Shown piece by piece: positions 13,210 to 13,526 of a DNA stretch of 64,000 bases. Position 1 is the stretch's first letter. The number at the start of each line of letters is the position of its first letter. The notes beneath the pieces are model-generated. The model was not told the origin of the DNA and searched no databases. It saw nothing but the letters and a program-made list of their open reading frames with translations. The stretch lies in the NCBI RefSeq assembly GCF_003334255.1, contig NZ_QOWU01000011.1. One strand, written 5' to 3'. Source of the stretch: Escherichia coli (lineage in GTDB: Bacteria; Pseudomonadota; Gammaproteobacteria; Enterobacterales; Enterobacteriaceae). The position numbers and the translations under genes are program-made.

Positions 13210-13233
13210 AGTTAGCTCCAATTTCCGTAAGGC

Positions 13234-13281
13234 AAAAAAAAGAAAGGTAACTTCCCCCGCGAGAGGGAAGTTACCTTTCTC
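13234..13281 (-). terminator. strong intrinsic-terminator-like structure in the ygcW 5' leader
   Basis: Perfect 16-bp inverted repeat AGAAAGGTAACTTCCC/GGGAAGTTACCTTTCT with 8-nt loop, followed on the minus (ygcW sense) strand by U7-8, ending 24 nt before the ygcW start codon. Confidence 0.6.
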
Positions 13282-13454
13282 ATTATCTCTGGTAACTGGA
13301 GATAATTTTTAGCATAAGGGCATAACTGCTAATGTGATCGTAATCACAGTGTGATATTCGTATTGTCAAATAATTTTAAAAAGCAGAAGCGTGATTACTC
13401 TCACACAACACCTCTGCTTTCCATGTTATTTATTATTTCAATTACTAGAGACCT

Positions 13455-13502
13455 GAGAAAAGTAATCCACCTGAAAGGGCGGCTTACTTTTCTCTTTTTT
13501 TT
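13455..13502 (+). terminator. hairpin + T8 tract in the yqcE 5' leader
   Basis: 11-bp perfect inverted repeat GAGAAAAGTAA/TTACTTTTCTC (18-nt loop) followed by TTTTTTTT, ending 24 nt before the yqcE ATG. Confidence 0.45.
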
Positions 13503-13526
13503 GTCTATTACAAATGGGAATACGAT

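Follow-up and report, generated by a model that had tools for sequence, protein, structure and literature searches.

The window analyzed here, a stretch of 64,000 nucleotides (nt) of Escherichia coli DNA, contains the region cysJ–queD–ygcNOP–ygcQRSUW / yqcE–ygcE–queE–eno, as assigned by megablast and RefSeq annotation. The megablast search found the stretch in 5,041 of 5,426 complete genomes. Our subject is the 317-nt spacer between the divergent genes ygcW (start codon at 13209, minus strand) and yqcE (start codon at 13527, plus strand), together with the leader RNAs of the two operons and the candidate regulator YgcP, encoded in the same cluster. An earlier note on this DNA had named ygcW, yqcE and ygcP, in agreement with annotated E. 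coli genomes, and had placed a GlpP-family protein in the cluster; YgcP is indeed a full-length PF04309 protein. The two leaders carry two copies of one conserved RNA element that ends in an intrinsic terminator, and we put the probability that YgcP is the antiterminator of both at roughly 75%. Coordinates are collected in Table 1.

Each leader contains a hairpin followed by a U-tract whose last U lies 24 nt before the ATG, exactly as the earlier note had described. On the ygcW side, the perfect 16-bp stem that it reported gains three extra pairs, giving 19 pairs closed by a 4-nt loop, with a folding free energy of −31 kcal/mol (z = −6.6). On the yqcE side, the reported 11-bp AU-rich stem and T8 tract are present, and pairing continues imperfectly above the stem (folding free energy −20.5 to −22.3 kcal/mol; z = −4.15). 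Folding energy had been proposed as a check on these structures; both proved strong, and none of 200 shuffled sequences folded as well on either side. A terminator scan of the 1 kb around the spacer gave 8 sites, against 1.1 expected, and the best of them was the ygcW hairpin. The 24-nt gap between terminator and ATG includes a Shine-Dalgarno sequence on both sides, and no promoter fits within it, as had been argued before.

Published Term-seq data (Adams et al. 2021, PMC7815308, supplementary file 3), obtained from cells in LB at an optical density of 0.4, contain Rho-independent 3′ ends at both hairpins, in favor of the earlier proposal. One end maps to 2900311(−) of MG1655, 38 nt upstream of the ygcW start codon, with 40,640 reads, a Rho score of 0.50 (“No”) and an intrinsic-terminator score of 15.8 (PMC7815308). 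The other maps to 2900556(+), 36 nt upstream of the yqcE start codon, with 1,557 reads, a Rho score of 0.61 (“No”) and an intrinsic-terminator score of 11.4 (PMC7815308). Both are among the rows of 5′ untranslated region (UTR) premature termination sites, where the column for a characterized regulatory element is blank, and the text of the paper is silent on them (PMC7815308). With their stable stems, immediate U-runs and Rho-independent 3′ ends, both structures are intrinsic terminators. Leader transcripts begin upstream of the hairpins and stop there under non-inducing conditions.

Table 1. Features of the ygcW/yqcE spacer, its flanking operons and ygcP, in window coordinates
Feature	Positions	Strand	Remarks
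ygcW leader element	13229..13298	-	Approximately predicted start to U-run; covariance model R1, 77.6 bits, E 1e-13
ygcW antiterminator 5′ half, AGUUACC	13291..13297	-	Complementary to GGUAACU in the 5′ arm
ygcW first GAGA motif, AGAGAU	13285..13290	-	(Nearly) invariant columns of alignment A2
ygcW leader terminator hairpin	13240..13281	-	5′ arm 13281-13263, loop 13262-13259, 3′ arm 13258-13240
ygcW terminator U-run	13234..13241	-	U8 in the window; U9 in MG1655 and most relatives
yqcE leader element	13439..13505	+	R1, 79.1 bits, E 6e-14
yqcE antiterminator 5′ half, AAUUAC	13440..13445	+	Pairs with GUAAU 13462-13466
yqcE leader terminator hairpin	13455..13494	+	5′ arm 13455-13471, 3′ arm 13478-13494
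yqcE terminator U8 tract (T8)	13495..13502	+	24 nt to ATG at 13527
CRP site 1, TGTGATCGTAATCACA	13333..13348	.	Center about 42-45 bp upstream of predicted ygcW start; conserved
CRP-like site 2, CGTGATTACTCTCACA	13390..13405	.	Center about 42 bp upstream of predicted yqcE start; sequence match and conservation
Predicted extended −10, ygcW, TGcTAAAAA	13306..13314	-	Conserved block in 31 spacers; start about 13299-13297
Predicted extended −10, yqcE, TGtTATTTA	13424..13432	+	Conserved block in 31 spacers; start about 13439-13441
ygcW (short-chain dehydrogenase/reductase, SDR)	12424..13209	-	First gene of the ygcW-U-S-R-Q operon, 3′ of its leader
yqcE (major facilitator superfamily, MFS, transporter) and ygcE (FGGY kinase)	13527..16309	+	Operon 3′ of the second leader
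ygcP, candidate antiterminator	7132..7707	+	PF04309 (G3P_antiterm), E 7.6e-62, positions 1-173 of 173

One leader element in two copies

The earlier note had called the two hairpins mirror images. The symmetric layout is real, but the relation is more than one of layout: the ygcW and yqcE leaders align with each other in sequence, which had been missed, and are two copies of one element. Common to both are rUUACy-AGAGA, UGAGAAArGUAA, UUACyUUUCU, a U-run followed by G-y-CU, and AAAU-GGA before the ATG. In the ygcW leader, the second GAGA motif opens the 5′ arm of the terminator at 13281 (minus strand).

Orthologous loci were collected across Enterobacterales, one genome per species, yielding 59 loci from Escherichia, Klebsiella, Citrobacter, Raoultella, Pluralibacter, Cedecea, Buttiauxella, Yokenella, Serratia, Rahnella, Ewingella, Erwinia, Pantoea, Izhakiella, Limnobaculum and Budvicia, among others. 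The element was found on both sides of the spacer in essentially every locus for which the spacer was available. An alignment of 98 distinct copies (A2) gave a consensus of about 65 nt, CAGUUACU-AGAGA-N3-4-GAGAAAAGUAAC-(variable upper stem/loop)-nUURCUUUUCUC-U7-9, in which UUAC, GAG, GAGAAA-G-U and C-UUU are invariant. A covariance model built from the element alignment (R1) found exactly two strong matches per locus (60 to 85 bits) over 1.2 Mb, all of them in the ygcW/yqcE spacer. Weak extra matches were antisense shadows of the same hairpins, and the model found no third copy before ygcN, ygcS or ygcP, elsewhere in the window or in the 59 loci. A permissive scan of the region against Rfam 15 returned best scores of 14 to 26 bits against thresholds of 39 to 229, hence no known family, and a scan of the whole window at gathering thresholds gave no match in the leader region. 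Elsewhere in the window, the latter scan gave matches at 37030-37389 (−), 55570-55775 (+), 235-392 (−), 58791-58833 (−) and 60261-60334 (+); these are CsrB, GcvB, a sok-like antitoxin RNA, ES036 and a tRNA, all expected here.

Three spacers are unusual. In Klebsiella spallanzanii and Citrobacter youngae (loci L007 and L009, at about 9855-10000), some 127 nt are inserted between the yqcE-side terminator and the start codon, and the element upstream of the insertion is intact. The inserted sequence (…GAGCTTACTGTAGTAAGTGATTCGGGTGAGTGAACGCAGCCAACGCA…) resembles an ERIC/IRU intergenic repeat. The spacer of Limnobaculum eriocheiris (L035, 9871-10000) measures only 130 nt. Its single hairpin lies between A9 and T9, and both the promoter region and the AGUUAC halves are missing; the spacer represents either a true collapse of the inverted pair or an assembly artifact.

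In a conservation profile of 31 spacers, only the Shine-Dalgarno sequences, the two elements, two TG-boxes and two CRP-type sites were conserved. When the TG-boxes are read as extended −10 sequences, both transcripts would start at the first bases of the element and the CRP sites would lie about 42 to 45 bp upstream. Both promoters would then have CRP class II geometry at the predicted starts. CRP site 1, predicted earlier by PhyloScan, was bound in vivo in chromatin immunoprecipitation from enterotoxigenic E. coli (PMC4287617) and in vitro in Footprint-seq with a Kd of 1.7 nM (PMC12871828). The two CRP-type sites are symmetric, one per predicted start, and the published binding names site 1 only. 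Sigma-70 holoenzyme binds the spacer in genomic SELEX (systematic evolution of ligands by exponential enrichment), and in that data set the spacer carries an H-NS flag (PMC3946193), so the operons may be silenced at initiation as well.

Two helices competing for one arm

The terminator helix is 97.9% paired over the 98 copies, compared with 59 to 67% when the partners are slid out of register, with compensatory double changes at six pairs (101 cells). In the lower stem (GAGAAAAGUAA / UURCUUUUCUC) the sequence itself is conserved. In the upper stem it varies freely and yet pairing persists, for example as UUCCC/GGGAA, UCCACC/GGCGG, UUCUCUGC/GCAGAGGAG or UUUCCGC/GCGGAAAG. Conservation of the stems in orthologous loci, whose absence the earlier note had named as refuting its proposal, extends with compensatory changes to about 70 loci.

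Upstream of the terminator, AGUUACY is complementary to RGUAACU in the terminator 5′ arm, which yields a 7-bp helix that competes for that arm. The corresponding segment of the 3′ arm has the sequence AGUUACY as well. By its sequence, this is the classical antiterminator arrangement. The putative antiterminator helix is 93 to 94% paired, compared with 15 to 54% in slid controls, and it varies in a compensatory manner: columns 3-33 are GC in 74 copies and AU in 24, columns 8-28 are UA in 73 and CG in 22, and columns 6-30 are AU in 98 and GC in 1. The yqcE copy of the window carries the G-C to A-U compensatory pair at columns 3-33. The variation extends to all three strands, since columns 8, 28 and 62 of A2 read U/A/U in 71 copies and C/G/C in 22, and one copy in locus L022 has AGUUGCC / GGCGACU / AGUCGCC, again a three-way change.

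The ygcW leader folds freely at −32.4 kcal/mol but at −15.6 kcal/mol with the antiterminator enforced; the corresponding values for the yqcE leader are −22.3 and −6.5 kcal/mol. Unaided, the antiterminator is therefore too weak against the terminator, and a stabilizing factor is needed. Taken together, the data indicate that the leaders are almost certainly conditional terminators.

YgcP as the candidate antiterminator

YgcP, with relatives of known structure in the PDB (3kts from Listeria and 1vkf from Thermotoga), is the sole regulator-like gene product annotated in the cluster. The conserved core of the 59 loci consists of ygcU-ygcW and the divergent yqcE-kinase pair plus ygcP. Serratia, Erwinia and Pantoea lack ygcNO and ygcQR, and their ygcP has been relocated beyond the kinase gene, still within 10 kb. 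An orthologue of ygcP was present in every locus with enough flanking sequence, including rearranged loci and those of another phylum, except that of Serratia microhaemolytica (L042). This 21-kb locus has both leader elements and no ygcP, and a 70%-identical YgcP (P0050), which NCBI assigns to this species, is encoded on another contig. The FGGY kinase gene (ygcE) lies 3′ of the element in every locus.

Close relatives of YgcP (54 to 61% identical) occur in Bacillota and Vibrio. The Halobacillus locus encodes SDR, FGGY kinase, flavin adenine dinucleotide (FAD) oxidase and a betaine/choline/carnitine transporter (BCCT), divergent from the antiterminator gene. That of Clostridium sediminicola encodes SDR, FGGY kinase, FAD oxidase and electron transfer flavoprotein (ETF), and that of Vibrio hannami has SDR, oxidase and ETF divergent from FGGY kinase, MFS transporter and antiterminator. 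The leaders of all three carry the element (53 to 68 bits with R1), and in Clostridium a consensus TTGACA-17-TATACT promoter puts +1 at the A of AGUUAC. When metagenomes were scanned with the 5′ motif, 8 contigs were recovered, and all 8 held loci of the same kind, with element, YgcP-type gene and cassette. This shared occurrence in Enterobacterales, Vibrio, Bacillota and metagenomes indicates that the element, the YgcP-type protein and the cassette travel together.

A second copy of the element in C. sediminicola (L063, 5265-5328, minus strand) lies inside the operon, at the junction of the FGGY kinase and FAD-oxidase genes, and would there provide conditional termination within the operon, which some BglG-type operons also have. 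Between Bacillota and Gammaproteobacteria, the SDR/FGGY-kinase/FAD-oxidase (± ETF) cassette and the YgcP-type gene share 55 to 78% protein identity, and the transporters differ (BCCT versus MFS). Such similarity suggests horizontal transfer of the whole pathway.

The leaders were also compared with those of proven GlpP targets. In Bacillus subtilis, the glpD 5′ UTR gives foreign promoters GlpP- and glycerol-dependent control (PMC9604022). This leader was combined with six glpF/glpD leaders of Priestia, Lysinibacillus and Paenibacillus, taken from canonical glpP-glpF-glpK-glpD loci that were located with the Listeria PDB sequence as the query. The common form of the canonical leaders is AAGUUAAUA-N5-12-(G)GAGA-N4-GAGAGACCAC…terminator…U-run. 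All six glpF/glpD leaders begin with AGUUA or AGUUC. A strict GAGA-N4-GAGA, with the second GAGA at the foot of the terminator 5′ arm, is found in B. subtilis glpD and in three of the six, and the remaining three have looser GA-rich motifs. By inspection, a short variable helix appears to bracket the repeats in some canonical leaders, its 3′ half lying in the terminator 5′ arm (GGUC/GACC, UGGU/ACCA and AUUCGU/ACGAAU); in the ygc element, AGUUACY/RGUAACU is placed in this way. When ygc and canonical leaders were aligned with MAFFT, the 5′ AGUUA, one GAGAA block and the U-run coincided, in an ambiguous register. The resemblance of the ygc leaders to GlpP target leaders is suggestive.

On this evidence we propose the following mechanism. 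Two divergent promoters in the spacer would be activated by CRP, and each transcript would start at or near the conserved leader of about 65 nt, which in this simplified form reads AGUUACY-AGAGA-N3-4-GAGAAARGUAAC-(variable upper stem)-YURCYUUUCUC-U7-9. An unaided leader folds into the strong intrinsic terminator, and RNA polymerase halts 24 nt before the start codon. When the pathway substrate is present, YgcP would bind the nascent 5′ leader at the tandem GAGA motifs between AGUUACY and RGUAACU. By analogy with GlpK, glycerol-3-phosphate and GlpP, the protein would probably be loaded with the phosphorylated product of the FGGY kinase YgcE, and the effector is probably a compound other than glycerol-3-phosphate. 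Binding would stabilize the 7-bp antiterminator and so use up the terminator 5′ arm, allowing read-through into ygcWUSRQ and yqcE-ygcE. That YgcP acts by stabilizing this particular helix is fairly probable, and we hold it less firmly than the assignment of YgcP to the two leaders.

Several observations weigh against this proposal. The Term-seq ends, at positions 162 and 407 of the MG1655 locus (L061) or approximately 13246 and 13491 of the window, fall 5 nt (ygcW) and 3 nt (yqcE) inside the 3′ arms and outside the U-run; either processing of the reads or an exonuclease that trims through the AU-rich lower stem may account for this offset. The supplements of Cappable-seq and SMRT-Cappable-seq list no start site at these coordinates or for these genes. 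The antiterminator is a short helix, and its compensatory signal comes mostly from two clade-level events and one single sequence, hence from about three independent events, so that the covariation support is good but not overwhelming. The likeness to canonical leaders consists of short motifs in seven leaders with an ambiguous register, and YgcP and a canonical GlpP share only about 31% identity. The canonical glp loci gave no significant match with R1, so that at the sequence level the ygc element and the canonical leaders are not simply one RNA family. In E. coli, ygcP belongs to a separate ygcNOP operon without the element, and YgcW, YgcE, YgcU and YqcE all score below curated NCBIfam cutoffs. 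Finally, our literature search returned no paper on YgcP function, on the leaders or on a link between them, as the earlier note had supposed for the leaders.

Other explanations of the leaders were weighed against the same data. The hairpins could be constitutive terminators or attenuators that damp leaky CRP-driven transcription, or 5′ stabilizing stem-loops, with induction at initiation only, through CRP and relief from H-NS. CRP binding has been shown, H-NS is flagged in the genomic SELEX table, and termination is seen in LB, all of which such a model accommodates. It leaves unexplained the invariant nucleotides outside the stems (UUAC, GAG and GAGAAA), the covarying competitor helix and the joint conservation of element and ygcP from Clostridium to E. 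coli. Moreover, a hairpin of −31 kcal/mol followed by U8-9 would block nearly all expression unless overridden. We regard this explanation as quite unlikely.

The mutually exclusive helices, their three-way covariation and the strongly conserved unpaired nucleotides are also features of a riboswitch, in which the 5′ region would bind a small molecule and switch the helices. As the element lies outside Rfam, an undescribed class is conceivable. YgcP would in that case be enzyme-like or an unrelated regulator; the PF04309 family presumably has a TIM-barrel-like fold. The sensor would comprise only about 30 nt, a 7-bp helix and a GA-rich loop of 15 to 18 nt, which is very small for an aptamer, and without help the antiterminator falls 16 kcal/mol short of the terminator. 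The PF04309 gene co-occurs with the element across phyla, in all loci with enough flank except L042, and proven protein-dependent GlpP leaders have the same layout and motifs. We regard a riboswitch as very unlikely.

The discrete 3′ end of the ygcW leader, with its 40,640 reads in LB, raises the further question of whether short terminated RNAs of about 65 nt are the main product, acting as trans-acting small RNAs or decoys, with downstream control secondary. Functional 5′ UTR-derived RNAs were reported in the same study (PMC7815308). The element is nevertheless always the leader, or in Clostridium an intra-operon junction, of the same catabolic genes, and terminator/antiterminator logic accounts for the conserved sequence; a role chiefly as short RNAs is highly improbable. 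A DNA operator is hardly credible and was rejected: the copies do form a long-range inverted repeat around the promoters, but their upper stems covary, differing wholly between copies and species while staying paired, the U-run lies only on the transcribed strand of each copy, RNA 3′ ends map there, and no DNA-binding regulator gene is annotated in the cluster. Leader-peptide attenuation was likewise rejected, since an AUG precedes GAGAAA in some copies only and is replaced by CUG, AAG, CAG or ACG elsewhere. The ygcW leader of the window (U8) contains an AUG that starts a frame of 23 codons (13273-13201, minus strand) with UAA just before the ygcW ATG, and the U8/U9 length polymorphism shifts this frame (U9 in MG1655). 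Conservation of the AUG does not extend to other copies, which makes a coding role unlikely.

Antitermination by YgcP explains more of the evidence than does any of these alternatives. A broader version is unlikely: that the element and YgcP-type proteins form a mobile RNA-protein switch that moves between Bacillota and Gammaproteobacteria with a polyol or sugar-acid pathway and senses a phosphorylated metabolite other than glycerol-3-phosphate, the abundant terminated leaders setting the threshold of induction by acting as decoys or in trans.

No function has been established for the ygc genes, although E. coli is the best-studied bacterium, and the annotation of YgcP as an antiterminator is based on homology only. 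Our analysis supplies concrete targets, an RNA consensus and a predicted regulon, ygcWUSRQ and yqcE-ygcE. The switch is testable, consisting of two competing helices for which natural compensatory variants exist, and with a leader-reporter fusion one could readily screen for the inducer and, through it, for the pathway substrate. The element could become a new cis-regulatory family in Rfam, which would annotate the cassette in many genomes. If the proposal is correct, this would be, to our knowledge, the first GlpP-type antitermination system described outside Gram-positive bacteria and only the second case of protein-mediated antitermination of an E. coli catabolic operon, after bgl.

Relation to known antitermination systems

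HutP, which controls hut in B. subtilis, is a small ligand-activated protein that acts on purine-rich NAG repeats upstream of or within a terminator, comparable with the GAGA motifs here. It differs from YgcP in fold and family, to which it is unrelated, and its repeats differ in number and spacing. The BglG/SacY/LicT systems, represented in E. coli by bgl, resemble the proposed ygc switch in logic. In both, antitermination of a catabolic operon depends on a protein that stabilizes a weak RNA hairpin overlapping the terminator 5′ arm (for BglG-type proteins, the ribonucleic antiterminator), and the terminators can be intra-operon, as is the Clostridium copy of the element. The proteins are of the CAT-PRD type rather than PF04309, the RNA motif is another one and, as far as gene content shows, the ygc system lacks coupling to the phosphotransferase system.

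The closest parallel is the GlpP system of B. subtilis, which controls glpD, glpFK and glpTQ. GlpP is of the same PF04309 family as YgcP, and its targets have an intrinsic terminator in the 5′ UTR directly after the promoter. As in the ygc leaders, the RNA starts with AGUUA and has GAGA repeats that abut the terminator 5′ arm, and the regulon includes an FGGY kinase that could make a phosphorylated effector. Catabolite control at the promoter is exerted by CcpA in B. subtilis and would be exerted by CRP at ygc. The ygc system differs in its proteobacterial host, in its distinct RNA consensus, in the arrangement of two copies as a divergent pair and in its cassette of SDR, FGGY kinase, FAD oxidase, ETF and MFS transporter genes in place of glpFK, glpD and glpTQ. 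Protein-dependent antitermination of the GlpP type is known; new are its RNA consensus and regulon at ygc, the phylum of the host and the effector that it probably uses there. The ygc system is best read as a diverged relative of B. subtilis GlpP/glpD-leader antitermination that operates on a different catabolic cassette.

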